DNA of 32,192 nucleotides from Acidobacteriota bacterium (GCA_023427865.1 JAEYZV010000208.1:1-32192); one strand, 5' to 3'. Shown: positions 100 through 27,535, counted from the stretch's first letter. The notes: generated from the sequence alone by a model not told the origin. A program made the numbers and translations.

Positions 100-3000
100 C
101 TACGAACTGCAAGGGCCGCCGGGCGGCGACGAATCGTACGGCGCCCGGCCCGGCAGCAACCGCGCACGCACGCGCTCGGGCAGCCGTGGGAAGTCACCGA
201 GGACCACCGCCATCTGCGTGGCGTCTAGGCCGTACAGGGAGGCCGCCGTCGCATGCAGGTCAGCGGCGGCCGCCTCATCGCCCGGACAGCGCATCAGACG
301 CAGCGTGAGCCTCACGACGCGCCTTCGCCGCAGATCGCCCGCGTCGACGCGAGGCACGGGCAGGGTGGCCATCAGCTTCGTGGTCACGTGCGCGCCAAGG
401 TAACGGCGCACGAACCAGTCGGCGACCACGCTGTTCAGCATGCCGCACAGATACAGCTGCGTCGCGAGTCCGGTGCGCGTGCGCAGGCAGAACAGCGTGT
501 GGGTCGACACGCACGCTGGCGGCAGCAGTGCGGCGATCAACGAGCGTGTGTTGGTCGGCGAGGAGACGTCGCGGTACGCAAGGCGCCAGCGCCGCCACGA
601 TCCCTCAGAGAGCAGGGACGCGGCGTCGGCCTCGTCGATCCACGGGCCGTCGTCATCCGGGCGGACGCTGAACGGCTGCACGTGCTTGCCATCCACGACG
701 ACGATCGGGATCGCGCCGGGCGCACGACGCAGCCGCCCGCGGTCGTCCGTGGCGTTCAGCTCTCGGCCGAACCGCAGATCCCAACCGCCGGGCCCGAGTC
801 GCGGCCACGCGATGAGCCGCTCGAGCAGCGCGAGCTCTTCGCCATTGCGCAGGTGCGGCACGGCTTCCGTCTCGCCTCCTGCCTGTTGGAGCAGTCTTCG
901 CGCCAGCAACCGCGGCGGCGAGGCCGGCGTGTGCCGCCTCAGGCGCAGGTGCGGTGCGTCGTCCACGAGCAGGTGGTCCGTCGATGCGCCCGTGGCCCCG
1001 CTCAGCGCAACGATCCGCATCGAGCGATGGATGGGGAACAGCCCTTCGCGGTTGTCCACGACCGAGACCCGGTCCACCAAGACCTGATCGAACACGAGGC
1101 GACGCAGGCCGGCGGCGCCGTGATCCGCGAGTACGCTGCCCGGCAGCAGGCAGCCGATGCGGCCGCCGTGACGCGCCAGCTGCAGCAGCCGTTCCACGAA
1201 CAACTGGTAGCTGTTCACGTGCCCGCTCGAGGCGCGGTACAGCCCGCTCTCGCGCACGAAACGCTGGAGCGGTCGTATGTCGTCGCGCCGCGTGGCGCGA
1301 TCGTCGTCGCTGCCGAGATCGCCGCGCAGCATCTCCCACGGCGGGTTCGCCACGACCGCGTCGAAGCCGCCATGACCGCCATCGAACACATCCGGGAACT
1401 CGAGACCCCAGTGCAGGCAGGCCTGCGCACGCGCCAGTTCCACCCATCGTCGTCGACAGGCTTCGACGTGGCTGGTGGTGTTCGTGCCTGTCCGTATCGC
1501 CTCGTCCACGCTGCGCCACACCGGCGCCGGCTCACGCGCCGCGTCCATGGCTGCCCCGCACCACGCGTCGGCACGCGTGCGCCAGGTGGCGAGCACGATG
1601 TCGTCGCGCAGGGACGCATGTTGCCGTGACTTCTCGCGCACATCGCCAGCCGTCTCGGTCGGTCGTGCCGCGAGCGCGGCGAGCAGCGGGCCCACACGCG
1701 CCGCCTCGTGGTGCCACTGCTGGAGATCGAACAACGGGAGTTGACCAACCGTTGGCCGCCGCCCGCCACGCTCGCGGACCGGAGCGCGAGCCAGCAGCGC
1801 AGCAGGCGAGACGCCGATCAGGCTGTTCCCGCAGCGCAGGTGCGCATCCAGCCACGTGAGCGGACGGTCCGGCGCGAGCGAGAGCAGCCACATCGAGAGC
1901 CGCGCCACCTGCACAGCACGCGGGTCGACATCCACGCCGAAGAGACACTGCTCGGCGATGCGCCGCGGCAGGGCGTCGCGCTCCCGCCGCGGCACGTCGA
2001 GCGGCCCCCCACGCCCCTCCCGCACCCAGGCGGCTTCCACGGCACCCACGAGGTACCGCAGCGCGCTGGCGAGCAGCGCGCCACTGCCCATGGCCGGATC
2101 GAGTACGCGCAACGACAGGATCCGCTCCGCCGAGGCGTCGCGCACGAGCGGCTCGAGGACCCGGTGCACGATCAGGTCGGCGAGTGCGGTCGGCGTGTAG
2201 TACGCCCCCGTTCCCTTCCGCAGCAGGCTTGCGCCAGCCGACGATGCCGACATCAGGTGCTCGTAGATCGACCCGAGGTGCTCCACACCGAGTTCGGCCA
2301 TGTCGATCGGTTCGCCGGCACCCGTGCCGCGGCCGGTCAGGCAAGCCAGCAGGCCCGCCACGGCGGCGTCAGGCAGGCGGGCTCCGCCTCGCGTGGCGAG
2401 CGCCGCGTCGAACAGCGGACCGTTCAGGGCGTTGACGCGCAGATTGCCGAGTCGCCCGCCCTGCCGACCGAGGCGACCCACCGCAACGAGGCTCTCGTGC
2501 AGCCCCACGGACGGCCCGCCGGGGCGCCGCTCCTCCTGCGAAAGCCCCGTGACGGAGTAGCTGCGTCGGTACGCCTCGTGCCACGTCGGGACCAGCTGCC
2601 GCGACTCGGCGAACAGGAGGAACAGCCACTGGAAGACGAGGGCGACGTGCGCGTTGCGATCTCCAGGCGCGCGGTTCTGCAGCGTGGTGAGCACCTCGGC
2701 GACGCCCTCGCGCAGCGCAGCGGCGGCCACCGCCGTCGATGATGCACTCGACGAGACGAGCCGCGTGAGCCAGGACGCGCGGCCGTGGCCGGCGCGTGCA
2801 GGGGGCGCCTGCCCGAGCAGCCACAGCACCTGCCAGACGCGCGCATCCATCGACGCGGCGGTCAGGTCGAGCGCCAGGTGTTCACGCGCATACGGCCGCG
2901 TAGCGTCGTACCACCGCCACGAGACGCCATTGCACACGCTCACCCATGACGCGCCGCGTTCGGCGCCCGCGCGCGTACACGCTCGTTGCAGGCCGTCCTG

Positions 3001-3333
3001 CGTGGTTCCCCACGGAAGCGCCATGAGAACCACCGCCGCTGCGCCGAGCTGCGCAGACGCCACGCGCAGCGGGATGCCCGCCAACCGCGCCACTTCCGGG
3101 GCGCCGGGAACCCAGCCGAGCGCCTCTGCGCACGGGCGAACGAGGTGCGACCACACCGCGGTGGCACCGGATGCCGGCCCGAGCACCTCGCCCGCGGAGT
3201 GCCAGACGCGAACGCATCGGTGCATCGCGTCCGTAGCAGCCGTCTCGTGGAAGTCCTGCAGGAGCAGGGTCGAGAGCTGACGCTCCAGCACGCGCGCAGC
3301 GATGCGTCCACCGGATATCCACGGCGCGCTCAC
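100..3333 (-). CDS. Type IIG/Eco57I-like (DrmMI-like) N6-adenine DNA methyltransferase with TRD; N-terminal nuclease-like domain looks degenerate
   Basis: Motifs RKGTGAYYTP, VLDPAMGSGALL (motif I), LFGVDVDPRAVQVARLSMWL and GFDAVVANPPW (motif IV). TRD-like WRLAYRDVSSPTNTRSLIAALLP. Start overlaps the helicase stop. Confidence 0.85.
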   Translation of the reverse strand: MSAPWISGGRIAARVLERQLSTLLLQDFHETAATDAMHRCVRVWHSAGEVLGPASGATAVWSHLVRPCAEALGWVPGAPEVARLAGIPLRVASAQLGAAAVVLMALPWGTTQDGLQRACTRAGAERGASWVSVCNGVSWRWYDATRPYAREHLALDLTAASMDARVWQVLWLLGQAPPARAGHGRASWLTRLVSSSASSTAVAAAALREGVAEVLTTLQNRAPGDRNAHVALVFQWLFLLFAESRQLVPTWHEAYRRSYSVTGLSQEERRPGGPSVGLHESLVAVGRLGRQGGRLGNLRVNALNGPLFDAALATRGGARLPDAAVAGLLACLTGRGTGAGEPIDMAELGVEHLGSIYEHLMSASSAGASLLRKGTGAYYTPTALADLIVHRVLEPLVRDASAERILSLRVLDPAMGSGALLASALRYLVGAVEAAWVREGRGGPLDVPRRERDALPRRIAEQCLFGVDVDPRAVQVARLSMWLLSLAPDRPLTWLDAHLRCGNSLIGVSPAALLARAPVRERGGRRPTVGQLPLFDLQQWHHEAARVGPLLAALAARPTETAGDVREKSRQHASLRDDIVLATWRTRADAWCGAAMDAAREPAPVWRSVDEAIRTGTNTTSHVEACRRRWVELARAQACLHWGLEFPDVFDGGHGGFDAVVANPPWEMLRGDLGSDDDRATRRDDIRPLQRFVRESGLYRASSGHVNSYQLFVERLLQLARHGGRIGCLLPGSVLADHGAAGLRRLVFDQVLVDRVSVVDNREGLFPIHRSMRIVALSGATGASTDHLLVDDAPHLRLRRHTPASPPRLLARRLLQQAGGETEAVPHLRNGEELALLERLIAWPRLGPGGWDLRFGRELNATDDRGRLRRAPGAIPIVVVDGKHVQPFSVRPDDDGPWIDEADAASLLSEGSWRRWRLAYRDVSSPTNTRSLIAALLPPACVSTHTLFCLRTRTGLATQLYLCGMLNSVVADWFVRRYLGAHVTTKLMATLPVPRVDAGDLRRRRVVRLTLRLMRCPGDEAAAADLHATAASLYGLDATQMAVVLGDFPRLPERVRARLLPGRAPYDSSPPGGPCSS

Positions 3334-5600
3334 GGGACGTTCCCCGGCGGCGCGTCAGCGGCCAGCCAATCGGCCGCTGCCGTGAATCCGCGTCGGGTGA
3401 TGAGCGCGTCCGTGCGGACGTGCGTCCAGCTCGTCATGCGACGCGCTTCCAGGACGGAAGGCTGCTCTTCCACGCGGAAGAGATCGCGGTCCTGCGAACG
3501 CTCGCGACTGGCGGCGACCGACGCGGCGCGGGCCCACGTGTGCATGCGGTGTGCCAGGCGTGTGGCGCGCGCCACCGGAGCGGAGAACAACCGGCAAAGC
3601 GACTCTGCGGAATCGACCGGGCCGATCTCTCGCACGGCGAGCGTGGCGTGAAGACGAGACGTTGACAGCGGCGCGTCGGAGGTGATCGCGATCGTTCCTG
3701 CCCACACCCCTCGCGCGCCCGGGGGCAGCTGCCAACGCTCGGACAGTCGCCGCCAGCGGCCAGGCGCGACTACGCATCGCGCGACCACGATGCCGGGCGC
3801 TCTCGCTGCGGCACGCCGGGTCATGGGCGGTGGCGTGACGTCTCGCGCGGCCAGGATGCGTGACGCCAGCGCCGACCTGCGACAGGTGCCTCTCGTGTGG
3901 CCAGGCCACCCGGCATCGTCCTGCGCACGCCGGGCGATGCGTGCGAGCGCGTCGCGGTCCTCGACCGTGTCGCTCGCCATCACCATCGCGTGAACGCGGC
4001 GTGGCTGTCCGTAGCGGTCGACACGCCCGATCCGCTGCTCGAGGACGCGGGCCGAGGGGGGCACCTCGGCGTGCACGACGAGGCGGCACCGCGCATGAAG
4101 GTTCAGGCCTTCGGCAGACGCGTCGGTCGTGACGAGGACGTCGGCGTCTCCCTGCGTGAACGCCGCGATCGCATCGGCGCGCAAGGCATCCGGCTGGCTG
4201 CCGTGCACGACGACCACCCGTCGCCCGTGCAGCGCGGCGCGCAGCGCGCGCAGGGTGTCCACGTACGCGGTGAAGACGACGGCCGGTTCGTTCACACGGC
4301 GGAGGAGTCGGGCCACGGCCTCGATCTTGCGTCCGGCTGCAGCAAGACGCTGAGCATGCGCGAGCAGCGCCGCGAGCTCGGCGCGCTCGGACCGCTCGTC
4401 CTCCCAGGCCGGCATCCGCATCATTTCCGCATCGTCATCGTCCTGATCGCAGGCGACGTCGAAGAGACCGGGACCGCGATCGGATCGTGTGCTTCCCGCC
4501 GTGCCGAGGACCTCCAGGCGCCGTTCGAGCGAGCGAACGACCGCCGCCGGACACGAGGCCGCGCGGCGTCGCAGCACCAGGGCCGGCAGCAATCCCGCGG
4601 GGCCGATCTCGTGCCTGGCGCGATGCGCGAATCGATCGAGCCTGGCGCAAAGGGCGGCATGCGCCAGGTCGAGGCGGACCTGCAGCACGTGCGTGCGGCG
4701 CGGCATCCGCTCCAGCCACGCGGCTGGCCGGCGAAGCACTGCCATCGGGTGTTCACCGGCACGCTGGCCGATCGCGCGCAACGAGGTGACGCCCTGGAGA
4801 CCACCCGCGGTCGGTGTGGCGGTGAGGAGCAGCAGGCGCATGCTTGCCATCGCCACGCGCCGCACGGCTGCCAGGCGGGCGGTCCCCGGCGCAGCCAGGT
4901 GCGCCTCGTCGACGACGAGCAGGGTCCATGGCGTGCGCGCCAGCAGCGAGACGACGTCCGGTTGGCGAAGCATGTCCATCGACACGAGCCAGCAGCCGCC
5001 GGCGCGTGACGCGTCCAGCTCGCGCCACGGCCGTGAGGCTTCGCGACGCAACGCCGTCGCGTCGAGCACGGCGGCGTCGATCCGCGCTTTCGCGAGCAGC
5101 TCGTGGCGCCACTGCACGAGCAGGCCAGCGGGGACGACCACTAGCGTCGACGCCGTGACGTCACGGGCATGCACCTCGTGCAGGAGCACGGCGGCCTGTA
5201 CCGTCTTGCCCATGCCCACCTCGTCGGCGATCAGCAGCCGTCGATGGTGACCGGACAGCACGAGCATCGACGGGACCAACTGCCACGCCACGGCGGTGAT
5301 GGGCAGGCGCCCGGCACGAGACGGCCACCAGGCCGGTGTGCACTCGCGTGCCCACGCGACGACGTGCCGAGCCCAGGCACGCCGGGAGACCGCCTGCGTG
5401 CGTGCCGGCAGCGGCTGGACGTGATCCGGAGGCGAGGCGACGAGGCGCGGTGTGTCGCTGTCGCGCAGCAGGTGCCACGTCGTGACCTCGGCGTTGCTGC
5501 GCACGTCGAGCACGTCCCACACCCTGGCGCGACAGCGCACGCGTGTGTGCAACATCTGCCACTCCCTTGCTGACGCACGTGGCAGCGAGTGCCACGTCAC
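3330..5600 (-). CDS. SNF2-family helicase/translocase (RapA/DrmD-like)
   Basis: LLIADEVGMGKT (Walker A), VVDEAH (Walker B), LTAT (III), TDASAEGLNL (V), EQRIGRVDRYGQ (VI). Confidence 0.85.
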   Translation of the reverse strand: MTWHSLPRASAREWQMLHTRVRCRARVWDVLDVRSNAEVTTWHLLRDSDTPRLVASPPDHVQPLPARTQAVSRRAWARHVVAWARECTPAWWPSRAGRLPITAVAWQLVPSMLVLSGHHRRLLIADEVGMGKTVQAAVLLHEVHARDVTASTLVVVPAGLLVQWRHELLAKARIDAAVLDATALRREASRPWRELDASRAGGCWLVSMDMLRQPDVVSLLARTPWTLLVVDEAHLAAPGTARLAAVRRVAMASMRLLLLTATPTAGGLQGVTSLRAIGQRAGEHPMAVLRRPAAWLERMPRRTHVLQVRLDLAHAALCARLDRFAHRARHEIGPAGLLPALVLRRRAASCPAAVVRSLERRLEVLGTAGSTRSDRGPGLFDVACDQDDDDAEMMRMPAWEDERSERAELAALLAHAQRLAAAGRKIEAVARLLRRVNEPAVVFTAYVDTLRALRAALHGRRVVVVHGSQPDALRADAIAAFTQGDADVLVTTDASAEGLNLHARCRLVVHAEVPPSARVLEQRIGRVDRYGQPRRVHAMVMASDTVEDRDALARIARRAQDDAGWPGHTRGTCRRSALASRILAARDVTPPPMTRRAAARAPGIVVARCVVAPGRWRRLSERWQLPPGARGVWAGTIAITSDAPLSTSRLHATLAVREIGPVDSAESLCRLFSAPVARATRLAHRMHTWARAASVAASRERSQDRDLFRVEEQPSVLEARRMTSWTHVRTDALITRRGFTAAADWLAADAPPGNVP

Positions 5601-6564: not shown

Positions 6565-6864
6565 ATGGCCCAGGCCCAGAAGATGACCAAGTCGGCGCTC
6601 TTTGCGTACTTCGCTGACAAGTTCGAGGTGAAGCGCACGGAGGTGCGTGACTGGTTCGACGAACTCGCGGCGCTCGCCGAGAAGGAACTGAAGCGCTCGG
6701 GCGAGTTCACGCTCCCCGGTGTGGTCAAGCTGTCGGTGCGCAAGAGCAAGGCGCGCATGGGCCGCAACCCGGCGACCGGCGAGCCCATCAAGATCCCGGC
6801 CAAGACGCGCGTGAAGGCGACCGTGGTGAAGGCCATGAAGGACGCCGTCATGCCGCGCAAGTAG
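6565..6864 (+). CDS. hup: HU-family DNA-binding protein
   Basis: ARMGRNPATGEPIKIPAK signature; GGGAG RBS upstream. Confidence 0.93.
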   Translation: MAQAQKMTKSALFAYFADKFEVKRTEVRDWFDELAALAEKELKRSGEFTLPGVVKLSVRKSKARMGRNPATGEPIKIPAKTRVKATVVKAMKDAVMPRK

Positions 6865-6885: not shown

Positions 6886-6925
6886 AAGGCCCCGCAGGAC
6901 ACCGTCCCGCGGGGCCTTTCCTTTT
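6886..6925 (+). terminator. intrinsic terminator between convergent HU and histidine kinase
   Basis: AAGGCCCCGC...GCGGGGCCTT stem followed by TCCTTTT. Confidence 0.75.
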
Positions 6926-8646
6926 CAGCTGGTCGTGATCCGCGTCAGCCGCGGGAACGTCAGCGTGAAGCGGCTGCCCTCGCCGACCGTGCTCTCCACG
7001 TCGATGGAGCCGCCGAGCTGCTCGACGATCTTGCGCGAGATGGCGAGCCCGAGCCCCAGCCCGCGACGCTTGGTCGTCACGAAGTCCTCGAAGATCGCCT
7101 GCATGCGATCGGCGGGGATGCCGCAGCCCGTGTCGCACACGCGGACGTGTACCTGCGAGGCGCTGCCGCCGACCTCGATCCACACCCGTCCGCCAGGCGG
7201 CGTGGCCTGCAGCGCGTTGAGCACCAGGTTGCGCAGCACGCGTCCGAGCGCGAACAGGTCGCCCTCGATGTACAGCGGCTGGGGCGGTGCCGTCCCGGAG
7301 TCCACCGTCACTCCGGCCACCGAACCCTGCGCCTGCATGCGCTCGACGACGTCGAGCATCAGCTTGCCGGCGTCGATCGGGAACTTCTCGAGCGGGATGG
7401 GACGCGCGAGGTTGCGGAGGTCCTCGAACGTCCGCTGGATGGTCGAGAACTCCCTCTTCACCAGGCGCGCGAAGGTCGCGCGGTACTCGGGGTCATCGTG
7501 CATCTGCAGCACGAGCTTGCAGTTGTTGTTGATGTTCTGGATGGGATGCGACAGGTCGTGCACGAGGCCCGCCGCGATGCGTCCGAACATCGCCTGACGC
7601 TCCTGGCGGATCGCCGCCTGCTGCAGCTCGCCGAGCTTGTCGGCCGTGGCGTTGAACGCGTCGCCGAGCATCCTGAACTCGTCGTCGCGCGTGATGTGTA
7701 CGCGTCGGTCGAGGCGCCCTTCCCCGATCGCCTGGATTGCCGACAGCAGGTCCTCTATCGGCTTCAGCAGGGATCGACCGAAGGCGATGCCGATGCCGAT
7801 GTTTGCCAGCAGCGCCAGCGTCGCGAACAGCAGCAGCTGACGCTCGAGTCGACGCGCCGGCGCGAACGCGTCCTCCACCGGCTGCTCGATGATCAGCCGC
7901 CACCGGTCGGGCGTCACCGGCGCGCTCGACACCCCCAGCACCGCCTCGCCGTTCTCGTTCACGTACACGTCGTCCGACGGTGTCACGCTGTGCGCCAGCG
8001 GATGGGCGTCGGCAAGGTGCTGCCGTTGCGCGATCCGTCTCTTCCCGCCGCCGCGACCGTCCGCGATGATGCGGCCGGCCTCGTCGACGAGATACGCGCG
8101 GCCGTTCGTGCCCACCCGGACGCCATCGACGAGATGCCACAGCTGCTCGAGGCGCAACTCCGCGACCAGGAACGTCGCGAGCCGCTCGCCCAGCGGCACC
8201 CTCATCCGCGCGCGCGGCAGCTGGTCCTCGTCGAGGTCGACAGGCAGGAGGATCGGCTGCGCCGGCGAGGAGCACGGCGCGGGTAGTGGCGGCGGCATGG
8301 CGCCGAGATCGCTCGTGGCGACGGGTGTGCAGTTGGCGTCGAACAGCGTGATCGACTTGATCTCCTGCATCAGGTGCAGGTGATTGCGGAGCACCTGGTT
8401 CTGCTGCGCGCGAGACAATCCGACGGCCTCCAGGTCTGCGCCGGCCGATGTCACGAGCCTGTAGCTCGCGTCGACGTACAGCTCGATGGCGCTTGCGGCC
8501 CTGGCGGCAATGGCCCGGTGGTTCTCGACCACGGAGTCGCGAGTCGAACGGCTCAGGGTGCGGCCCGCGACGAGGCCGAAGACGAGGAGGGGCGCGAGGG
8601 CTGCGGTGGTGACCAGGAGCGCCATGCGCCGCGTGATCGGGATCAT
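6925..8646 (-). CDS. sensor histidine kinase (TM, Cache-like periplasmic domain, TM, HAMP, HisKA, HATPase; NtrB/NtrY-like)
   Basis: H-box LVHDLSHPI, N-box LRNLVLNALQA, DTGCGI, FVTTK, GLGLGL, and two TM segments. ATG 8646 overlaps the upstream TGA (ATGA) and has a GGAGAGG RBS. Confidence 0.92.
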   Translation of the reverse strand: MIPITRRMALLVTTAALAPLLVFGLVAGRTLSRSTRDSVVENHRAIAARAASAIELYVDASYRLVTSAGADLEAVGLSRAQQNQVLRNHLHLMQEIKSITLFDANCTPVATSDLGAMPPPLPAPCSSPAQPILLPVDLDEDQLPRARMRVPLGERLATFLVAELRLEQLWHLVDGVRVGTNGRAYLVDEAGRIIADGRGGGKRRIAQRQHLADAHPLAHSVTPSDDVYVNENGEAVLGVSSAPVTPDRWRLIIEQPVEDAFAPARRLERQLLLFATLALLANIGIGIAFGRSLLKPIEDLLSAIQAIGEGRLDRRVHITRDDEFRMLGDAFNATADKLGELQQAAIRQERQAMFGRIAAGLVHDLSHPIQNINNNCKLVLQMHDDPEYRATFARLVKREFSTIQRTFEDLRNLARPIPLEKFPIDAGKLMLDVVERMQAQGSVAGVTVDSGTAPPQPLYIEGDLFALGRVLRNLVLNALQATPPGGRVWIEVGGSASQVHVRVCDTGCGIPADRMQAIFEDFVTTKRRGLGLGLAISRKIVEQLGGSIDVESTVGEGSRFTLTFPRLTRITTS

Positions 8647-10112
8647 CGATCCTCTCCGACCACCTTCCACCGCGGCAGCGACCCGAGCACGTCGGACTCC
8701 GCGTCGTCGGGCACCTGCACGCGCTTGCCTACCGCACGGCTCGTGCGCTGCCAGTACAGGTGAACGGCCGGCGGATCGTCCAGGAGCACGTGATGCAGGT
8801 CGGCCACCGCTGCGACGAGATCGTCGTCGCCGGTCGCGACGCGAATGCGCTCGGCGGCGACCGCGGCCGAGCGGTACCCGAGGTCGATCATGCGCGGACG
8901 ATCGTGCGCGCCGAAGTACAGGTACGGCACGCCAAGGCCGTACCCGCTGACGATCGGCGACAGGAAGGTTTCGAAGTCGCCCCTCGCCAGGCGCGCCGGG
9001 AGGTCCCGGAGTTGCACGGGCGCCAACTCGAGGGCGATGCCAGCGTCCGCGTAGGATCGCTGCAATCGTCGAGCCACACGAATCATCGTCGGGTCGTCGA
9101 GCACGAGGCAGGTGACGCGGAACCGCGGGCGCATGGCTCCGTTGGGCGTGCGATGCACCGGCAGCCCTTCGGCGTCGAGCAGCGCGCCGGCGCGGCCACG
9201 ATCGACGCGAAGCCACTCGGCGTCGGCCGTGTGCGGCTGTGACCAGTGCTGCGGCCAGATGACGTCGGCAGCCGGCTCACCACCGCCAGCTTCCTGCACG
9301 AGGGCGGCACGGTCGACGAGCGCATTCATGGCGAGGCGTACGCGTCGCCGCGCGAGGATCGGATGCCGATGGTTCAGCCCGAGCGTGACCACGTAGGGTT
9401 TCACGTGAGGGTAGATCCGAGCTCCGGCCGCCGCGAGCAACTCTCGTGACTCGTTGGGCACCTCGTAGAGCACGTCCACCTCCTCGCGAAGGAGCGCGGC
9501 GACGGCAGCACGAGGGGTGTCGTAGCGTCGCAGCGCCACCGTCCGGATGTCGGGCGCAGGTGCCGCAGGCGCGTCGGTTCCTGCCGCTTCGAGGGACCGC
9601 ACGTCCGCGCCCGGATTCGGCGCCCGATACGGACCGGCAGGGAGCGCGCCGACGATCGAGAGGCTCTCGAGCAACAGGCTGGTGGACTCGCGCAGCGTGA
9701 GTCGCACCTCATGGGGCCCGGCGAGTTCCACCGCGGTCACCGGCCACAACCCGGGGCCGCTCTCGGCCGCCGCGACGGCCTCGCGCAGCACCGATACGAC
9801 GTCGGCCGCCGTCACCTCGCCGCCGTCCTGTAGACGCACGCCCTCGCGCACGTGGAGGATCCACGTCCGGCCATCCGGCGAGACGTCCCAGCGATCGACG
9901 AGGTCGGGCCGCGGGTGGCCGGCCTGGTCCATGCGGAGCAGGCGCGTGCGGGTCAGGCTGTAAACGAGGGGCGTCAGCGGCGCATCGGCACTCGGGATGC
10001 CGATGGCGATACGGGAGCCGCGAGTCGAGACCGGCGCCGGCTCGGGAGCCCGACGGCAGGCGGCCGGATACGCGAGCAGCGCGCCGGCGAGGCAGACGCC
10101 CACCCAGCGCAC
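8643..10112 (-). CDS. family 5 (OppA/DppA-like) extracellular solute-binding protein, possible lipoprotein; start uncertain (10112-10223)
   Basis: PDLVDRWDVSPDGRTWILHVREGVRLQDG...VTAADV is the SBP-5 N-terminal signature; LGLN..HP.L...RVRLAM; hydrophobic signal ending AAC. Confidence 0.8.
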   Translation of the reverse strand: MRWVGVCLAGALLAYPAACRRAPEPAPVSTRGSRIAIGIPSADAPLTPLVYSLTRTRLLRMDQAGHPRPDLVDRWDVSPDGRTWILHVREGVRLQDGGEVTAADVVSVLREAVAAAESGPGLWPVTAVELAGPHEVRLTLRESTSLLLESLSIVGALPAGPYRAPNPGADVRSLEAAGTDAPAAPAPDIRTVALRRYDTPRAAVAALLREEVDVLYEVPNESRELLAAAGARIYPHVKPYVVTLGLNHRHPILARRRVRLAMNALVDRAALVQEAGGGEPAADVIWPQHWSQPHTADAEWLRVDRGRAGALLDAEGLPVHRTPNGAMRPRFRVTCLVLDDPTMIRVARRLQRSYADAGIALELAPVQLRDLPARLARGDFETFLSPIVSGYGLGVPYLYFGAHDRPRMIDLGYRSAAVAAERIRVATGDDDLVAAVADLHHVLLDDPPAVHLYWQRTSRAVGKRVQVPDDAESDVLGSLPRWKVVGEDR

Positions 10113-10268
10113 CGCGGGGTACGACGCCAGTCGCTTGGCGGGAGGGCAGGCAGCGGGGACGGTCACGCAGCGTTCGGCGGGCGCGCCTGGTGCACGCATG
10201 CCCGCCGAGGCTGCTTGTATCACGAGTCGCGGACCGGCGCGGGAGCCGGGCGCGACATTCGCGGTGAC

Positions 10269-10376
10269 CTACTTGCCTTCCGGCCGGACCTCCGGCTGCT
10301 CGTACGGGTAGTCGATGAGCAGCGGGCAGAAGGGGCGGTCCTTGGATGCGCCCCGCTTCACGATGCGAATGGTCAT
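10269..10376 (-). CDS. putative RiPP precursor peptide, 35 aa: MTIRIVKRGASKDRPFCPLLIDYPYEQPEVRPEGK
   Basis: Not in the ORF track. AAGGAGA RBS 4 nt before the ATG, GC3-rich codons, 46 nt downstream of the rSAM/SPASM stop and on the same strand. Confidence 0.8.
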   Translation of the reverse strand: MTIRIVKRGASKDRPFCPLLIDYPYEQPEVRPEGK

Positions 10377-10422
10377 GGGATCTCCTTGACGATTGCGGGC
10401 CGCGGCGACATGCCGCGACGCG

Positions 10423-11865
10423 TCATGCGGGGACACCTGCTGCCGCCGCCGCGATCTCGTCGAGCGCGGCGAGCATGCTCGGGCGATGACAGCTCGGCTT
10501 GCCGAGGTCGCCCTGCTCGTTGTGTGCGGCGGCCGAGCACCCTCCGCCGCAGACCGGCACGAGCGCGCAATCGCCGCACGCCCGCCAGGGCGCGTGCGCG
10601 TCGAACCGGGCCCGCGTCGCCTCGTGCGTCGCGTTCATCGCGGGCAGCACGTGCCCGATCCGGAGAGCCGGTTCTCCCGTGAACCCCGGGCAGGGATACA
10701 GCGAGCCCTCGGGCCCGATGGTGTACGAGTGCCTGCGGTGCAGCTCGCAGGGACCCATGTGCAGTCCGTCCACCGTGTCGAACCCGCGTGCCCGGGTCTC
10801 CGCCCGGAGCCACGACATGCGCTCGTCGACGACCTGGCAGGTGTCACACGGCGACGATCCCCCGCCGTTGCCGGCGGCCGTCATGCACGTCCCCCCGAGC
10901 GGTACGTCCGCCTCACCCACGTGCGTCAGTGGGATCAGCCGACGGCCGTCCGGGGCCACCTGCAGCGGCGACCGACCGGGCGATCCTGTATTCGGCCCGC
11001 TAATGATGGGCTTGAACGCGACCTTCGCGATCCGGCCCGCAAATGGCTGCTGCCGCAGGAAATCGAGCAATTCGGGGAAGCTGGCGGCGCTCTCGATGTC
11101 GAAGTTGCCGCCGATGCTGAGGCGCACCTTCGGCGCCACCTTCGTCATGTTCGCGACGATGCGGTCGAAGGTGCCCTGGCCGCCGCGCAGCGGACGGAGC
11201 CGGTCGTGGGTGGCGCGATCGCCGTCGAGGGTGATCTTCACGCCGGCCAGTCCGTACGGCAGGAGGCGGTCGACGACGGCTTCCGTGAGGAGCAGGCCGT
11301 TGGTGATGATGTTGATGCGCATCTCGACGCCACGGCGCGTGCACGCCTCCCACATCCGCTCGGCCAGCGCATAGACGACCGGCAGGTTCAGGAGCGGCTC
11401 GCCGCCGAAGAACGTGAGCGTGAACCGGGGGGAGCCGAGGGCGTCCAGGCGCGATTGCATCCAGTCGGCAACGCGCGCTGCCGTCTCGAGCGACATCTTC
11501 GCGGCCGTGGCGTTGTAGCCCGCGTGGTCGCCCTGGATGCAGTAGTCGCAGGCGAAGTTGCACTGCAGGGTCGTGAGCAGCGTCACCCGCAGCTGGCTTG
11601 CGTCCTCACGCAGGTCACGGAAGAACGCCTCGAGATCCCGATCCTCGGCCTCGCGGCTCTCCACGAGGAAGCCGAGCTCGGCGAGTTGGCCGATGGCCGC
11701 CCGCGCCGTCGCATCAGCCTTTGTGACCTCGCCCCTGTCGACCTGGCCGATCAGTTCGACGACATCGCTCGAGACGACGATCTGGGCGTCGGTCAGCGAG
11801 TTGAACAGGAAGGTCTCGGACGTCCCCGGGACCGGGGTAGCGACGATGAACCTCGATGCGCGCAT
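10423..11865 (-). CDS. radical SAM/SPASM peptide maturase with N-terminal RRE/PqqD-like domain
   Basis: CNFACDYC (CX3CX2C), FFGGEPLLN, ITNG, ITLDG; SPASM CX13GX4C...CX2CX5CX3CX15C; N-terminal FLFNSLT...LAELGFLV. Confidence 0.92.
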   Translation of the reverse strand: MRASRFIVATPVPGTSETFLFNSLTDAQIVVSSDVVELIGQVDRGEVTKADATARAAIGQLAELGFLVESREAEDRDLEAFFRDLREDASQLRVTLLTTLQCNFACDYCIQGDHAGYNATAAKMSLETAARVADWMQSRLDALGSPRFTLTFFGGEPLLNLPVVYALAERMWEACTRRGVEMRINIITNGLLLTEAVVDRLLPYGLAGVKITLDGDRATHDRLRPLRGGQGTFDRIVANMTKVAPKVRLSIGGNFDIESAASFPELLDFLRQQPFAGRIAKVAFKPIISGPNTGSPGRSPLQVAPDGRRLIPLTHVGEADVPLGGTCMTAAGNGGGSSPCDTCQVVDERMSWLRAETRARGFDTVDGLHMGPCELHRRHSYTIGPEGSLYPCPGFTGEPALRIGHVLPAMNATHEATRARFDAHAPWRACGDCALVPVCGGGCSAAAHNEQGDLGKPSCHRPSMLAALDEIAAAAAGVPA

Positions 11866-11879
11866 GGCGGCCGCGGTAG

Positions 11880-11895
11880 TGCCAGACGGGTGCCA
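11880..11895 (-). promoter_or_regulatory. putative sigma54 (-24/-12) promoter of the rSAM operon
   Basis: Minus strand TGGCAC-CCGTC-TGGCA, one mismatch to TGGCAC-N5-TTGCW, 14 nt before the rSAM ATG and next to a GAFTGA activator gene. Confidence 0.7.
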
Positions 11896-11984
11896 TCCGG
11901 GACGCGATGGCGCGCGAAATCGGTAAGCGTCTCGTTATGAGGAAGTTACGGTAAGGCCAGCGAGAGCACGGAGCCCGCAGAACA

Positions 11985-12032
11985 TCGCAGGAACTGCGCT
12001 TCCATCGGGACTTGTGTGTCGCAGAATCTGCC
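11985..12032. promoter_or_regulatory. candidate upstream activator sites (twin GCAG-N3-CTGC palindromes)
   Basis: CGCAG-GAA-CTGCG (11986-11998) and GCAG-AAT-CTGC (12021-12031); centres 34 bp apart, about 100-130 bp upstream of the -24 box. Confidence 0.45.
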
Positions 12033-12057
12033 CACATGACGGCAGCGCGACACAAGA

Positions 12058-12100
12058 GAAGGACGAAGGAGGAAGGACGGAGGAGGAAGGACGGAGGAGG
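12058..12100. repeat. purine-rich heptamer repeat (GAAGGAC/GGAGGAG, 6 units)
   Basis: Directly visible just downstream of the response regulator stop. Confidence 0.8.
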
Positions 12101-12107
12101 CCCGCCA

Positions 12108-13496
12108 TCACGAATCGCGCAACCGTCGCGTGACCTCGTTCAGGCCCAGGCGGGCCATACGGTGCTTCAGGGTGCTGAGGGGGAGGCGCAGCTGGCGGGC
12201 CGTCCCGGCGACGTTCCAGTCCTCCTTCTCCAGTGCCTTGAGCAGGTAGCTGCGCTCGAAGGCGGCCACGGCCTGATCGAGGAGGCTGTCGGCGGGGTCG
12301 GCCTCGCGCGCGTCGAGTGCGGCGAGCTGCACTTCGAGCGGCAGGTCGGCCTCGGTGATCTCCGTCTTGTCGCAGACGGCGACCATGCGCTCGGCGAGGT
12401 TCTGCAGTTCGCGGATGTTGCCGGGCCACTTGTACCGGTGGAGCACCGTCAGGGCCGCCGGCTCGATGCCGCGGACGGCCTTGCGGAAGCGGAGCGCGTA
12501 GCGGCCGATGAACACCTCGAGGAGCTGCGCGAGGTCCTCCATGCGGTCGCGAAGCGGCGGCAGCCGCACCGGGATGACGTTGATCCGGTAGAACAGGTCC
12601 TCGCGGAACCGGCCACTCCGCACCGCCTGCGTGAGGTCGGCGTTGGTGGCGACCACGAGACGGAAGTCGACGCGGATCGGGTGGCGCCCGCCGACCCGCT
12701 CGATCTCGTTCTCCTGGATGGCCCGCAGCAGCTTGGCCTGCAGGTCGAGCCGCAGGTCGCCGATCTCGTCGAGGAACAGCGTGCCGGCGTTGGCGAGCTC
12801 GAACTTGCCGAGCTGCTGGCGCACGGCACCCGTGAACGCACCGCGCTCGTGCCCGAACAGCGTGCTCTCCACGAGATCGCCGGGGATCGCGGCGAGGTTG
12901 ACGGCGATGAACGGGCCCTTGCGCCGATCGGACTCGGCATGGATGCGGCGGGCCAGCATCTCCTTGCCGGTGCCGCTCTCGCCGGTGATCAGCACCGTCG
13001 TGTCCAGGGGCGCCACCTTCTGGACGAGGGCGACCACGGCCCGCATCGGCGCGCTCGTGCCAGTGACGAACTCCTCGTCCTGCGCCTCGACCTGCGCCGT
13101 CAGCGACTCGACACGGTTCTTGAGGTCCTGCCGCTCGCTTGCGTTGCGCACGAGGGCACGCAGCGCGTCGTAGTCGAACTCCTTGGTGATGTAGTGGTAG
13201 GCGCCGAGCTTCATCGCCTGCACTGCGGTCTCGACGTCGGTGATCGCCGAGATCATGATCACCTCGATTTCCCCCCGCAGCTCACGTACCTGCTTGAGCA
13301 TCTCGAGCCCGCCGATGCCGGGCAGCCGCACGTCGAGCAGCATCAGGTCCACGCGCGCCTGCCGCAGGCGCGACAGCCCGTCCTCGGCCGAGGAGGCGGT
13401 CATCACCCTGTAGTCGCGCTTCAGGATGGCCGTCAGCGTGTCGCGCATCCCCTCATCGTCGTCGACGATGAGGATGGTCTTCTGGGGGGAGGGCAT
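12108..13496 (-). CDS. sigma54-dependent response regulator (NtrC family: REC, AAA+, HTH)
   Basis: ILIVDDD...LLD receiver; GESGTGKE, GAFTGA, LFLDEIG, REDLFYRI, WPGNIRELQN; Fis-type HTH. Alternative start at 13511. Confidence 0.95.
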   Translation of the reverse strand: MPSPQKTILIVDDDEGMRDTLTAILKRDYRVMTASSAEDGLSRLRQARVDLMLLDVRLPGIGGLEMLKQVRELRGEIEVIMISAITDVETAVQAMKLGAYHYITKEFDYDALRALVRNASERQDLKNRVESLTAQVEAQDEEFVTGTSAPMRAVVALVQKVAPLDTTVLITGESGTGKEMLARRIHAESDRRKGPFIAVNLAAIPGDLVESTLFGHERGAFTGAVRQQLGKFELANAGTLFLDEIGDLRLDLQAKLLRAIQENEIERVGGRHPIRVDFRLVVATNADLTQAVRSGRFREDLFYRINVIPVRLPPLRDRMEDLAQLLEVFIGRYALRFRKAVRGIEPAALTVLHRYKWPGNIRELQNLAERMVAVCDKTEITEADLPLEVQLAALDAREADPADSLLDQAVAAFERSYLLKALEKEDWNVAGTARQLRLPLSTLKHRMARLGLNEVTRRLRDS

Positions 13497-13664
13497 CGGT
13501 GGCGCCTGCATCTTACCGAAGAGCCCGCGCCGGTCGCGTGACGATCCATAATTGGGAGTTTTCCCGGATCGGGGTCGGCGTTATCGACCACCGACCGTCG
13601 GAGCACGGATTTCCCGGGTGGACGTGCCGCCAAGGCACGCGCCCTCACTGGCAAGGAGCAGGGG

Positions 13665-17158: not shown

Positions 17159-17300
17159 GGCCGGCTGTCCCAGCCGGGCCCGCCATGGGCTTGAACGGTA
17201 GGGCCGGCTGTCCCAGCCGGACCGGCGATGGGCTCGAACGGTAGGGCCGGCTGTCCCAGCCGGGCCGGCCATGGGCCACGCTCGGGGAGCGAACCCTACC
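17155..17300. repeat. GTAG-type REP cluster: three 43-bp tandem units plus one inverted REP
   Basis: TAGGGCCGGCTG-TCC-CAGCCGG at 17156, 17199 and 17242; inverted GTAGGGTTCGCTC-CCC-GAGCG ending at 17299. Confidence 0.85.
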
Positions 17301-18631
17301 TACCGACTGCCTGCCGTCGACGGCGCTTCGTCCGCGGGCGGCGTCTCGAGCGCCGCGATGCACTCCTTCACGCCGCGTCCCTCGACTTCGACGACCTCGA
17401 ACCGCACGTGGTCGTACGTGACGACGTCGCCGACGCGCGGTTGACGGCCGAGGAGCGTCAGGATCAACCCGCTGACGCTGTCCACCTCGTCGTGTTCGAG
17501 CGCCACGCCCAGCGCTTCGCCCGCTTCCTCGACGCGCGACGTGCCGCTGACGTGGAGCACCCCGCCCGCGTCGCGGTAGATGCTCGTGTGCTCGCTCGCG
17601 CCCTCGGCCACCTCGCCGATCACCTCGTCGAACAGGTCCTCGTGCGTGATCACGCCGGCCGTCCCACCGTGCTCGTCGATGACCACGGCCATCTGCGCTC
17701 GCGCATCACGAAGCTCCTCGAGGACGACGTCCAGTGTGGCCGTCTCGGGGACGGCGGGAATCGGACGCACGATATCGGCCGAAAGCGCCGCGCCGCGTGT
17801 CTGGAGCAGCAGCAGGTCCTTGACGTTCACCATGCCCGTCAGCTGGTCGATGTCGCCCTCGTACACGGGATAGCGCGTGTAGGGCCGTTCGTGCACGAGG
17901 GTCGTCACCGTTGCAGCGTCCGCCCCGAGCGGCAGGGCCGCCAGGCGCACGCGCGGCGTCATCACCTCGCGCGCGGTGAGCTCGCCGAACTCGAACAGCT
18001 CGCGCAGGATCCGGCCAGCCTCCTCACGCAGCATCCCGCCGGCCTGGCTCTCGCGCACGATGAGGGCCAGTTCCTCCGGCGAATACACGTGCTCATGCGA
18101 GGTCTGGTGCCGCCGCACTCCGATGAGGCGGAGCAGGAAGTTCCCCAGCGCGTTCAGCGCCAGCACCAGCGGGTAGCAGATCGCCTGGATGACCAGCATC
18201 ACGGGCGTGATCCACAGCACCGTCCGCTCGGCGCGCTGCAGCGCGATCGACTTGGGCACCATCTCGCCGAACACGATGTGCACGTAGGTGAGCGCCGCCA
18301 CCGCGAGGATGCTCGCCAGCGTGTGCGAGGCGACGTACTTGGCCGCGCCCAGACCTTCGAGCCAGGGCACGAGACGCACGGCGACCTCGTGTTCGCCGTA
18401 CATGCCGAGTCCGAGGCTCGCCAGCGTGATCCCGAGCTGCGCCGTGGCGATGAAGCGATCCTGCCGGCGGGGATCGTCGAGGATCGCGTGGGCGCGCCCG
18501 GCGACAATGCTGCCCCCGGCCGCGCGCTTCTCGATCGCCACGCGCGGCGTTCCGACGATGGCGAACTCCGCCGCGACGAACAGGCCGTTGAGCAGCACCA
18601 GCACCGCGACGATGACGAGGAGCGTGATCAT
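17300..18631 (-). CDS. hemolysin/CNNM family protein (DUF21, CBS pair, CorC_HlyC)
   Basis: LNGLFVAAEFAIV, QLGITLASLGLG, GEMVPKSIAL, VMTPR, VIDEHGGTAGVITHEDL, C-terminal CorC domain. Confidence 0.92.
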   Translation of the reverse strand: MITLLVIVAVLVLLNGLFVAAEFAIVGTPRVAIEKRAAGGSIVAGRAHAILDDPRRQDRFIATAQLGITLASLGLGMYGEHEVAVRLVPWLEGLGAAKYVASHTLASILAVAALTYVHIVFGEMVPKSIALQRAERTVLWITPVMLVIQAICYPLVLALNALGNFLLRLIGVRRHQTSHEHVYSPEELALIVRESQAGGMLREEAGRILRELFEFGELTAREVMTPRVRLAALPLGADAATVTTLVHERPYTRYPVYEGDIDQLTGMVNVKDLLLLQTRGAALSADIVRPIPAVPETATLDVVLEELRDARAQMAVVIDEHGGTAGVITHEDLFDEVIGEVAEGASEHTSIYRDAGGVLHVSGTSRVEEAGEALGVALEHDEVDSVSGLILTLLGRQPRVGDVVTYDHVRFEVVEVEGRGVKECIAALETPPADEAPSTAGSR

Positions 18632-19716
18632 GCTCGCGACCTCGTGGCGCGAGGTGCATTGCTGCGCAGCGTGGACTGGGTGAACTCGTCGGGTGTCGGG
18701 CCGAGCAGCGACGAGAGGATGTCGTCGAGCGTGACCATGCCGACGACTGCCTTCCGTTCATCGACGACGATCGCCTGGTGCGTGCGGCGGCGCCGCAGCT
18801 CCGCGAGGAGGCGGTCGCCCGTCATGGTCTCGGCGACGACGGTGGCGGGCTGCAGCACCTCACGCAGCGTCCGCACCGGGCGCCCCTCGACATGCCTCAC
18901 GAGCAGGCGCTTGGTGTTGAGGAAGCCTTCCACGCGATCCAGCGTGCCGCGGTAGACGGGCACGTGCGCCTGTGCCGAGTCGAGTGCGAGTGCCAGCACG
19001 TCCTCCATCGGCGTGGACACCTCGATGGCCTGCATGCGGTCGCGCGTCGTCATCAACTGCGCGGCCGTGCGAAGACTGAAGCGGAGCGCGCGCTGCAGCC
19101 TGCGAACTTCGTCCGGCTCCAGGAGCCCGCCGTCGTGGCTCTCGGCGATCAGCAGTTCGATCTCCTCCGGCGAGTGCACGTGGCGGTGGGCGCCGTGACT
19201 GCTGCCGAGCATACGGAGGATGAGCGTGCCCGAGCCGTTGAGGAACCAGATGAAGGGACCGAGCGCCCAGAGCGAGAAGCGCATCGGCCAATAGGTGTAG
19301 AGCGACAGCTCGGTGGGGTACTGAAGTGCGAGCGACTTGGGCGCGAGCTCGCCTGTGACCATCTGTCCGACGGTCAGCAACACGAGGATGGCGAGCGCTG
19401 CCGTCGAGGCGGACGCGACCGCGTCCATCCCGAACCTGTCCTCCAACAGCTGCGACAGCGGCTGGCCGAACGCCACCTGGCCATAGGCGCCGAGCACGAG
19501 ACTCGACAGCGTGATGCCGATCTGGCACGCGGCGATGTAGCGGTCGAGTTCCACGGGGGACTCGAGCACCGGCGACAGCCGTGCCGCCACCGACGAGCCA
19601 TCCTCGGCAAGCTGCCGGATACGGCTGCGCCGCACCGACACCGCGGCGAACTCGGCTGCGACGTAGAGCGCGTTGACGCCGACGAGGAAGACGACGACGA
19701 GGAACGCGGTGAGCAC
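18628..19716 (-). CDS. hemolysin/CNNM family paralogue (DUF21, CBS pair; lacks the CorC domain)
   Basis: VNALYVAAEFAAV, QIGITLSSLVLG, GELAPKSLAL, VGMVTLDDIL; GTG start 1 nt after the upstream stop. Confidence 0.88.
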   Translation of the reverse strand: MLTAFLVVVFLVGVNALYVAAEFAAVSVRRSRIRQLAEDGSSVAARLSPVLESPVELDRYIAACQIGITLSSLVLGAYGQVAFGQPLSQLLEDRFGMDAVASASTAALAILVLLTVGQMVTGELAPKSLALQYPTELSLYTYWPMRFSLWALGPFIWFLNGSGTLILRMLGSSHGAHRHVHSPEEIELLIAESHDGGLLEPDEVRRLQRALRFSLRTAAQLMTTRDRMQAIEVSTPMEDVLALALDSAQAHVPVYRGTLDRVEGFLNTKRLLVRHVEGRPVRTLREVLQPATVVAETMTGDRLLAELRRRRTHQAIVVDERKAVVGMVTLDDILSSLLGPTPDEFTQSTLRSNAPRATRSRA

Positions 19717-19717
19717 G

Positions 19718-24709: not shown

Positions 24710-24805
24710 GGCGGCTGATTGTACGCCGAGATGAACCCACCGGCTGACCGTTCCGTCAAATGTCAGCGTTCGGGAAATCGGCCGTTCGCGGCCCCGGAGT
24801 TGCCG

Positions 24806-26005: not shown

Positions 26006-26088
26006 TGGCCGGCGGGCGCGTTCGGGTAACCCGCGGCGCGGCGCCAGGCCGCACGTCGGCGGATCTTCCACGCGCCATAGCTTCTCGA

Positions 26089-26116
26089 GGGTAGGGGCAG
26101 CTCCCCGAGCTGCCCG
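26089..26116 (+). repeat. single GTAG-type REP hairpin
   Basis: GGTAG-GGGCAGCTC-CCC-GAGCTGCCC. Confidence 0.7.
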
Positions 26117-26130
26117 ACGGTGAACCTCCC

Positions 26131-27426: not shown

Positions 27427-27431
27427 AACAC

Positions 27432-27520
27432 GGCAATTGGAAATGCGGAATGAGATGCGCGCCGACGTCTGGCGCCGGCGCGTAGCTCCTGAATTTCCAA
27501 TCTCCAGTTTCCAATTCCAG
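27432..27520. repeat. element related to the 22.9-kb repeats (heptamer arm, GC hairpin, inverted heptamer arm)
   Basis: CAATTGG AAATGCG GAATGAG ... GAATTTC CAATCTC CAGTTTC CAATTCC. Confidence 0.6.
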
Positions 27521-27535
27521 ATGCGAGCGTCTCCG

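Follow-up and report, generated by a model that had tools for sequence, protein, structure and literature searches.

A predicted sigma-54-type operon encoding a radical SAM peptide maturase, its precursor, a binding protein and a sensor kinase is conserved in the Vicinamibacterales

We analysed a 32,192-nt stretch of Acidobacteriota bacterium JAEYZV010000208.1 (the window), which has a G+C content of about 70% and comes from a Luteitalea-like soil acidobacterium of the order Vicinamibacterales. The minus strand between 6925 and 13511 contains five co-oriented genes with one short open reading frame (ORF) among them. In order, these are predicted to encode an NtrC-type response regulator, a radical S-adenosylmethionine (rSAM) peptide maturase, a short precursor peptide, an orphan solute-binding protein (SBP) and a sensor histidine kinase. 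The cluster is flanked on one side by genes for Lpd, E2 and LipB and on the other by an HU-like gene and QueF; no exporter or protease adjoining it was seen in the window's gene annotation or its Pfam and NCBIfam matches. The initial annotation had described the five genes, the peptide and the lack of an adjacent exporter or protease in the same way, and the domain matches and motifs bore it out. The locus is real and conserved. We consider it very probable that it is a sigma-54-driven, two-component-controlled operon for a peptide made on the ribosome and modified after translation (RiPP) that carries its own SBP-kinase sensor.

From Pfam, NCBIfam and structure matches, the gene at 10423..11865 (minus strand) is predicted to encode an rSAM/SPASM peptide maturase, whose modelled N-terminal domain may be a RiPP recognition element (RRE). 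The protein contains the motif C102-x3-C106-x2-C109, whose cysteines are invariant in nine orthologues, and scores 58 bits against Radical_SAM (cut-off 29.5). Residues 373-457 match the SPASM model TIGR04085 with 49.3 bits (cut-off 27), and the seven-Cys SPASM motif is complete and invariant in the orthologues (C373-x13-G-x4-C392, C430-x2-C-x5-C-x3-C443, C459). The best NCBIfam match is TIGR04280, 'geopeptide radical SAM maturase', with 249.1 bits in the direct comparison and 192 + 55 bits in the genome search. Membership in this family was rejected given its curated cut-off of 400, and we regard the enzyme as a relative. Scores against PapB (NF047865; 131 bits, cut-off 340) and SCIFF (108 bits, cut-off 425) were also below cut-off. 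In databases the orthologues are named 'radical SAM protein', 'anaerobic sulfatase-maturating enzyme' and, once, 'geopeptide radical SAM maturase'. Searches of the full-text literature returned no mention of the TIGR04280 geopeptide family, the word 'geopeptide' matching only the unrelated gageopeptides.

Structural comparison points to the same kind of enzyme. By sequence, the closest solved structures are 5why/5wgg, a thioether-forming RiPP maturase with the PDB title 'thioether bond formation in the biosynthesis of sactipeptides', followed by TigE and SuiB. The model of the whole maturase aligns best to 5why/5wgg and then to TigE, SuiB and SkfB, with alignments to 5why, TigE and SuiB of 493-517 columns, gaps counted. 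We take 5why/5wgg to be CteB, the SCIFF/ranthipeptide enzyme, and 5why, TigE and SuiB to be RRE-bearing. In residues 1-100 of the model, where the predicted local distance difference test (pLDDT) by block is 71-90, strands at 7-11, 17-22 and 27-32 are followed by helices at 33-43, 52-64 and 71-86. The first 95 residues of seven homologues gave no match to PqqD or to any other Pfam model.

Beginning 46 nt past the stop codon of the maturase gene, with an AAGGAG ribosome-binding site ahead of it, is a conserved ORF of 35 codons (10269..10376, minus strand) encoding MTIRIVKRGASKDRPFCPLLIDYPYEQPEVRPEGK. In the predicted precursor a basic beta-strand leader precedes a core that contains a C-x4-D motif, and the ORF is kept across the Vicinamibacterales. 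In an alignment of 35 sequences (A4) Cys17 is invariant, and Met1, Ile3 and Asp22, five residues past the Cys, are at least 90% conserved. A larger set of 93 distinct precursors was picked by the leader and one Cys, so that Cys-less copies were excluded by construction; these are 29 to 39 residues long, and 92 contain C-x4-[DE], 72 contain C-x4-D and 89 have a single Cys. Scanning seven precursors against NCBIfam at E values up to 10 gave no real match, and a look-up of the peptide in the ESM Atlas returned nothing usable. A match of the methanobactin model to the leader of one precursor (9 bits) was set aside as noise. The M-K-I-K-V-V-K-K-like N-terminus looks like a leader for an RRE, and our guess, from sequence, is that the product has a single Cys-to-Asp thioether ring across C-x4-D. 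Arrays of precursors lie between the maturase and SBP genes in two loci, L019 (6003-7077) and L020 (8431-9726). They comprise two or three sequence types, with variants that have Ser (…KVSPWLVDVP…) or Trp (…AYLWPFLVDYP…) at the position where all single-copy precursors have Cys.

PapB modifies Cys-x3-Asp sites, which the C-x4-D of the window peptide resembles. With the thioether maturases 5why/5wgg and PapB (NF047865) the window system shares the CxxxCxxC motif, a seven-Cys SPASM domain, an adjoining short Cys-containing precursor and possibly an N-terminal RRE. It differs in having one Cys and one predicted ring instead of six, in family scores below the cut-offs, and in an operon that has no protease or exporter, adds an SBP and a kinase, and is predicted to be sigma-54-driven. 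TIGR04280 is the best-scoring named family for the enzyme and provides the name of one orthologue record, whereas the window score is below its cut-off and the precursors match no NCBIfam model.

The next two genes are predicted to encode a sensor. The product of the gene at 8643..10199 (minus strand) matches SBP_bac_5 with 127 bits (family 5; OppA/NikA/DppA fold). The N-terminus of 18 of 20 homologues has a lipobox-like hydrophobic segment with Cys as its last residue, and the SBP is therefore probably a lipoprotein facing the periplasm. The conserved module contains no ABC permease or ATPase partner for it. The ATG of the kinase gene (6925..8646, minus strand) overlaps the SBP stop codon (ATGA). 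The kinase consists of a transmembrane segment, a periplasmic Cache-like domain, a second transmembrane segment, and HAMP, HisKA and HATPase domains; HAMP scores 53 bits and HATPase_c 99 bits, and dCache_1 scores 34 bits, below the Pfam cut-off of 45. An SBP without a cognate ABC transporter that is encoded with a kinase is what defines the genes of an SBP-dependent sensor, and this is the arrangement found here. The SBP model (pLDDT 85.8) has a full two-lobe fold, for which the best Foldseek matches are AgaA, NikZ, YliB, AppA, AapF and NikA, along with the DppA and OppA fold; the best NCBIfam matches are NikA-type at just 55 bits. Prediction of a complex between the SBP (residues 58-518) and the unmodified 35-aa precursor gave a score of 0.02 against a mark of 0.32, which, as no controls were included, is evidence neither way.

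At the other end of the cluster is the gene for the NtrC-type regulator, a sigma-54 enhancer-binding protein (12108..13511, minus strand). The initial annotation was right about the gene and placed its start at 13496, which is the second in-frame ATG; the gene runs from 13511. In Pfam it matches Response_reg, the receiver (REC) domain, with 98 bits, Sigma54_activat with 232 bits and HTH_8, a Fis-type helix-turn-helix (HTH), with 30 bits, and it has a Walker A motif at residue 177 and GAFTGA at residue 224. It thus combines the REC domain, the AAA+ domain with GAFTGA and the C-terminal HTH of the NtrC family; no NCBIfam equivalog reached its cut-off. Orthologues are 57-91% identical and adjacent to the other genes in most loci. 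Four loci from two genera have the regulator elsewhere: in three of these four genomes it shares the contig at a distance of 48-62 kb, and in the remaining one it is on a different contig.

Directly ahead of the maturase gene, as the initial annotation had noted, is a sigma-54 type -24/-12 promoter, TGGCACCCGTCTGGCA (11895-11880, minus strand). It is the sole match to TGGCAYN5TKGCW in the window, where 0.05 were expected and five of 100 shuffled sequences had one. The 4.5-Mb assembly contains 11 matches to the near-identical TGGCA[CT]-N5-T[TG]GC[AT], TGGCACCCGTCTGGCA among them, and encodes rpoN (sigma-54; 453 bits, cut-off 277). Within 300 nt upstream of the maturase gene, 78 of 85 distinct loci have a loose form of the motif and 56 of the 85 have a strict form. 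The rates expected from the remainder of the same loci are 0.0066 and 0.0005 per 300 nt, respectively. Among the seven loci missing the motif is the L019/L020 group, which by eye has TGGA-type variants further upstream. TGGCACCCGTCTGGCA ends only 14 nt ahead of the maturase ATG, and the predicted 5' untranslated region is therefore about 4 nt long. A similar spacing is seen throughout the genus Luteitalea, where the element begins 30 or 31 nt before the ATG in 11 of 11 loci (the 16-mer plus 14-15 nt) and the predicted transcript is near-leaderless; other families have 40-290 nt and a GGAG site.

Further upstream are dyads that may bind an activator. A palindrome, GCCAA-N4-TTGGC, lies 112-259 nt upstream of the -24 element in 44 of 84 upstream regions, eight of which have two copies; it occurs once elsewhere in 1.17 Mb. 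The window's own family uses a different element, CTGC(C)GACA, which 11 of its 15 loci carry between -157 and -219 relative to the maturase start, against a background of 0.0136 per 300 nt. In the window this element, CTGCGACA, is part of the inverted repeat TGTGTCGC-N24-GCGACACA (12015..12054, minus strand), a candidate upstream activator site about 125 nt before the -24 element. A second dyad of the form GCAG-N3-CTGC, GCGCAGTTCCTGCGATG (11983..11999, minus strand), is a possible second site and was seen by eye in several relatives. A genome-wide search for the window's upstream dyads did not define a regulon, these short motifs being too common in coding DNA to be specific. On the operon strand we found neither a sigma-70-like promoter nor a terminator-like site inside the operon; the lone example of each is on the plus strand. 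The spacer between the peptide and SBP genes folds no better than shuffled sequences (z -0.26). The layout is, by sequence, that of a classical enhancer-dependent promoter. Its assignment to sigma-54 rests on the motif, rpoN and conservation. The earlier proposal that the neighbouring regulator drives this promoter is partly supported by the conserved element, the accompanying dyads and the presence of rpoN; the regulator would bind at the dyads. The spacer between the regulator and maturase genes also contains variable short tandem repeats, which are CT-rich 13-mers in the window (12058-12097, minus strand) and about 20 ACCCGT-type heptamers in another locus (L014).

We examined how widely the genes occur together. 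Orthologues of the maturase (E < 1e-100) are present in 33 of 41 relatives, comprising all 25 from the window's family and eight of the 16 that belong to the order's other families. When the phylum was sampled evenly, nine of 301 genomes had them, all inside the Vicinamibacterales, and a species-level collection with one genome per species yielded 344 places encoding an rSAM relative. The closest loci belong to Luteitalea, Vicinamibacteraceae and Vicinamibacterales, and orthologue records include the cultured Luteitalea pratensis and Luteitalea sp. TBR-22. Across 20 loci spanning the order, E2-Lpd is followed, in divergent orientation, by regulator-rSAM-peptide-SBP-kinase and after that by HU-QueF. 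The SBP and kinase genes follow the maturase in 19 of them, the contig of the 20th ending at that point, and the regulator precedes it in 15. With thresholds of our own, the four large genes are in order in 58 of 68 distinct loci that have enough flank. The ten misses are the four with the regulator elsewhere, two in which the adjacent regulator splits into two matches, and four with weak SBP matches. The last four are long-read assemblies, and in the one inspected (L066) the SBP frame is broken into pieces.

The genes are also lost together. In 19 rSAM-negative genomes of the order there is no SBP match better than 1.8e-23, and the sensor domain of the kinase was found in one, which is 87% complete and has it where a contig ends; the four positive controls all have SBP and kinase beside the maturase. 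Two complete genomes of an rSAM-negative family have Lpd, regulator, HU and QueF at the locus, with the other four genes cleanly absent. These joint absences indicate that the unit of inheritance is rSAM-peptide-SBP-kinase. The regulator is the least tightly bound part because it survives in two genomes without these four genes. In one such genome the retained regulator breaks into two matches at residues 357/358 (L198; G249:C3:30000-35000), a frameshift or early decay. The housekeeping neighbours Lpd, E2, HU and QueF are conserved to the same degree, so synteny inside the order is weak evidence alone. It would also be seen if an rSAM/peptide pair had landed by historical accident in an unrelated SBP/two-component operon and then descended vertically. 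The loss of the four genes as one block speaks against such an accident, as does the position of the predicted sigma-54 promoter ahead of the maturase gene, from which SBP and kinase would be transcribed with it.

More distant relatives bear on the same point. A metagenome scan with the closer rSAM set (alignment A3), about 40% identical to the window enzyme, returned mostly further Vicinamibacterales loci, together with ten loci in which the rSAM protein is 29-36% identical, the GC fraction is 0.37-0.63 and the Lpd, HU and QueF flanks are missing. The most complete arrangements are those of L175 (TonB-dependent receptor, sigma-54 regulator, the promoter-like element TGGCACAGCCATTGCT, rSAM, peptide, SBP_bac_5 with 297 bits, dCache/HAMP kinase and a REC-HTH-HD_5 protein), L117 (regulator, TonB receptor, promoter, rSAM, peptide, HD_5, SBP, kinase) and L119 (rSAM, peptide, methyltransferase, SBP, kinase and more kinase and receiver genes). 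L118 and L135 have promoter, rSAM, peptide and SBP before the contig ends, L128 has SBP, peptide, rSAM and an ABC exporter, and L161 has rSAM followed by a dCache kinase. The distant peptides retain the leader and Cys, for example MKLQVVKKGSRDKKVLWCWWMIYK in L175, and TIGR04280 is the best named family for all 30 distant rSAM representatives (222-345 bits, below 400). By comparison, SBP_bac_5, a sigma-54 activator and a dCache kinase were found in none of 12 control loci with an rSAM protein 22-27% identical; these hold ABC exporters, an AgrB, OmpR-type regulators and peptidases. The distant recurrence and the empty controls together indicate that the association belongs to this clade specifically and predates the order. 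The same gene set thus occurs with other flanks and GC contents, and the accident is already disfavoured; we consider it very improbable. The check proposed with the initial annotation, five-gene co-occurrence, came out positive, with the four large genes arranged alike in 58 of 68 loci, absence as a block and recurrence at a distance.

Other near-consensus -24/-12 sites are present in the distant loci, before the regulator and REC-HTH-HD_5 genes of L175 (4835 and 11996) and before a small ORF in L119 (13422). These sites give a hint of a small sigma-54 regulon with an HD-GYP-type (HD_5) cyclic di-GMP protein among its members. An unrelated agr-like locus was also encountered (L183:1255-9730), with a GHKL kinase, an ABC exporter and two rSAM/SPASM genes adjoining an AgrB homologue.

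If the SBP recognises the peptide, the two might diverge together, and we compared peptide-core and protein distances at 26 loci by Mantel tests. The SBP is the fastest-evolving protein of the set (mean distance 0.64; kinase 0.48, rSAM 0.38, regulator 0.29). Its distances correlate with those of the peptide core when either Lpd (r 0.35, p 0.002) or E2 (r 0.40, p 0.002) is the control for phylogeny. With the same controls, rSAM, regulator and QueF show nothing, and the kinase shows a weak relation (r 0.08, p 0.23 with Lpd; r 0.16, p 0.034 with E2). Divergence of the peptide core may therefore track the SBP beyond phylogeny, which we regard as a hint and not as proof.

Based on these results, the most economical reading is that the ligand of the sensor is the operon's own peptide, and we hold the chances for and against this to be about equal. 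It is favoured because it fits the inheritance as a block, the distant recurrence, the co-divergence and the presence in relatives of genes for an exporter or a TonB receptor. In such a circuit the maturase would bind the basic leader (M-K-I-K-V-V-K-K) through its N-terminal RRE-like domain and install an intramolecular cross-link at the invariant Cys, in the order likely a Cys-to-Asp thioether as in ranthipeptide/sactipeptide enzymes. The modified peptide would reach the periplasm or the outside, where the membrane-anchored SBP would bind it and switch the kinase on. The phosphorylated regulator would then activate the sigma-54 promoter, yielding more signal and receptor and thus positive feedback. 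This autoinduction had been proposed at the outset; block co-inheritance, the conserved promoter and the co-divergence of core and SBP support it, and the survival of the regulator without the other four genes does not.

The alternative of most weight is that SBP, kinase and regulator sense an outside ligand, such as oligopeptides, an opine-like compound or a metal chelate, and that the RiPP is the output, perhaps an antibiotic, a protective peptide or a cofactor. Nutrient-sensing SBP-dependent kinases are well known (ChiS with CBP, TorS with TorT), the nearest relatives of the SBP by sequence and fold bind nickel-histidine, opines, glutathione and peptides, the module lacks a peptide exporter, and the regulator outlives the cassette in two genomes. 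On the other hand, within the order SBP and kinase were never seen without rSAM and peptide, they reappear by related rSAM/peptide pairs in distant lineages, and the divergence of the peptide core follows the SBP and not the maturase. A generic nutrient sensor is not expected to co-vary and vanish with one small peptide, and we judge the outside ligand unlikely.

Several observations weigh against sensing of the operon's own peptide. The modelled SBP fold suits nickel, opine and peptide binders equally and does not single out a ligand. When the regulator is the control in the Mantel tests, the unrelated Lpd and E2 also correlate with the peptide core, which indicates that the regulator is inadequate as a phylogenetic control; such tests on kin are in any case liberal and overstate significance. 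Genomes of one order are not independent, and a single event or a few may account for the losses. The regulator is kept without the other four genes in two rSAM-negative genomes and lies 48-62 kb away in others, and it may thus have other inputs or outputs. Neither the window's module nor the modules of the 68 loci contain an exporter, a leader protease or a signal sequence. As to the peptide itself, one genus has arrays of four to six tandem precursors, some with Ser or Trp for Cys, and the distant peptides have no Asp and end five or six mostly aromatic residues past the Cys, which together make the cross-link chemistry uncertain.

The TonB-dependent receptor that adjoins the regulator in two of the three fully covered distant loci (L117, L175) raises a third explanation, in which the peptide is a secreted metal or nutrient scavenger of the methanobactin type that is recaptured through this receptor and the SBP, with the kinase sensing the loaded form in the manner of a siderophore sensor. 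An excerpt of PMC7558416 describes methanobactin uptake by the TonB-dependent MbnT and the OppA-like periplasmic MbnE, and on this account the two systems are alike in being RiPP loci with an OppA-family periplasmic binder and, in L117 and L175, a TonB receptor. The best NCBIfam matches of the SBP are also to NikA-type proteins, at the low score given above. Against this, the core has a single Cys in 89 of 93 precursors and few other metal ligands, and a Cys taken up by a thioether would leave no thiol. The Vicinamibacterales module has no TonB receptor, and a search of four Vicinamibacterales genomes with the L175 receptor gave no clear orthologue, generic plug-domain similarity alone being found (E 1e-29 to 1e-33). 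No metal-responsive regulator was seen. The maturase chemistry differs from that of methanobactin, the core shows no sign of metal binding, and a two-component system takes the place of the methanobactin sigma/anti-sigma pair. We consider a scavenger improbable.

Returning to the reading in which the peptide is the signal, each part is of a known kind. SBP-dependent kinases include LuxP-LuxQ for autoinducer-2, CBP-ChiS with a family-5 SBP, TorT-TorS and AioX-AioS-AioR with a sigma-54 activator. They resemble the window in that a periplasmic SBP lacking a transporter is encoded beside a PAS/Cache-type kinase, and the Aio output is an NtrC-type activator. To our knowledge, none of LuxPQ, CBP-ChiS, TorT-TorS and Aio has a ligand peptide that is encoded and matured in the same operon. 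The agr system of Firmicutes likewise has precursor, maturation enzyme, kinase and regulator in one locus, with the regulator driving the promoter of signal and receptor, and its signal is a short hydrophobic peptide with a Cys-anchored ring; the distant peptides of our set end 5-6 residues past the Cys. The window differs from agr in having an rSAM enzyme instead of AgrB, an additional SBP, sigma-54 with an enhancer-binding protein instead of an AgrA-type regulator and a diderm host, and it has no processing or export protein. In streptococci, excerpts of PMC9389541 and PMC13361665 describe streptide and other RaS-RiPPs under SHP/Rgg control, in which rSAM-cyclised short peptides are tied to peptide signalling. 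In these streptococcal systems the RiPP is the output of a separate SHP signal sensed in the cytoplasm after import by Opp, whereas in the window the receptor genes are inside the RiPP operon and their products are predicted to face the periplasm.

Full-text searches found no paper with an rSAM precursor/maturase pair inside an SBP/kinase/sigma-54 operon, and supplementary tables of biosynthetic gene clusters in soil-metagenome papers (e.g. PMC8692599) might list the cluster without remarking on it. The combination looks as if it has not been described in a Gram-negative bacterium.

Peptide autoinduction is textbook knowledge in Gram-positive bacteria and rare in Gram-negative bacteria. Subdivision 6 of the Acidobacteria ranks with the most abundant bacteria of soils, and we know of almost nothing on its signalling. 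A broader proposal, somewhat doubtful and put forward tentatively, is a widespread class of diderm peptide pheromones in which a released rSAM-cyclised peptide of about 10-20 residues would be captured in the periplasm by a lipoprotein SBP of family 5 that switches a Cache kinase, and signal and receptor would both be amplified through a sigma-54 enhancer-binding regulator, with re-import by TonB receptors and an HD_5 cyclic di-GMP branch in some lineages and with 'pherotypes' set by core and SBP. The module offers a small, well-delimited circuit that can be tested, an rSAM substrate family that is new and predicted to have one minimal ring, and perhaps a new role for OppA-type proteins, as co-receptors of a RiPP. 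The promoter and regulator provide a handle for inducible expression in soil bacteria that are hard to study. The module is abundant and compact, and cultured relatives in Luteitalea make bench tests feasible.

The HU/IHF-like gene next to the cluster (6565-6864, plus strand) is convergent with the kinase gene and matches Bac_DNA_binding with 75 bits and IHF-alpha with 43 bits, below cut-off. It is retained beside the kinase gene in 66 of 68 loci and absent from the distant loci; that its product may bend the sigma-54 promoter is only a thought. Elsewhere in the window, a 1077-aa Eco57I/MmeI-type N6-adenine methyltransferase is encoded beside a 756-aa SNF2 helicase (100-5600, minus strand), a defence-like pair. 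The helicase scores 182 bits against the DISARM DrmD model, below cut-off, and its gene stays beside QueF in many relatives at 35-62% identity. Two adjacent CNNM/CorC-type paralogues lie at 17300-20223 (minus strand), and an HlyD-type adaptor and two MacB-like permeases are encoded at 24719-28882 (plus strand), 14 kb from the cluster.

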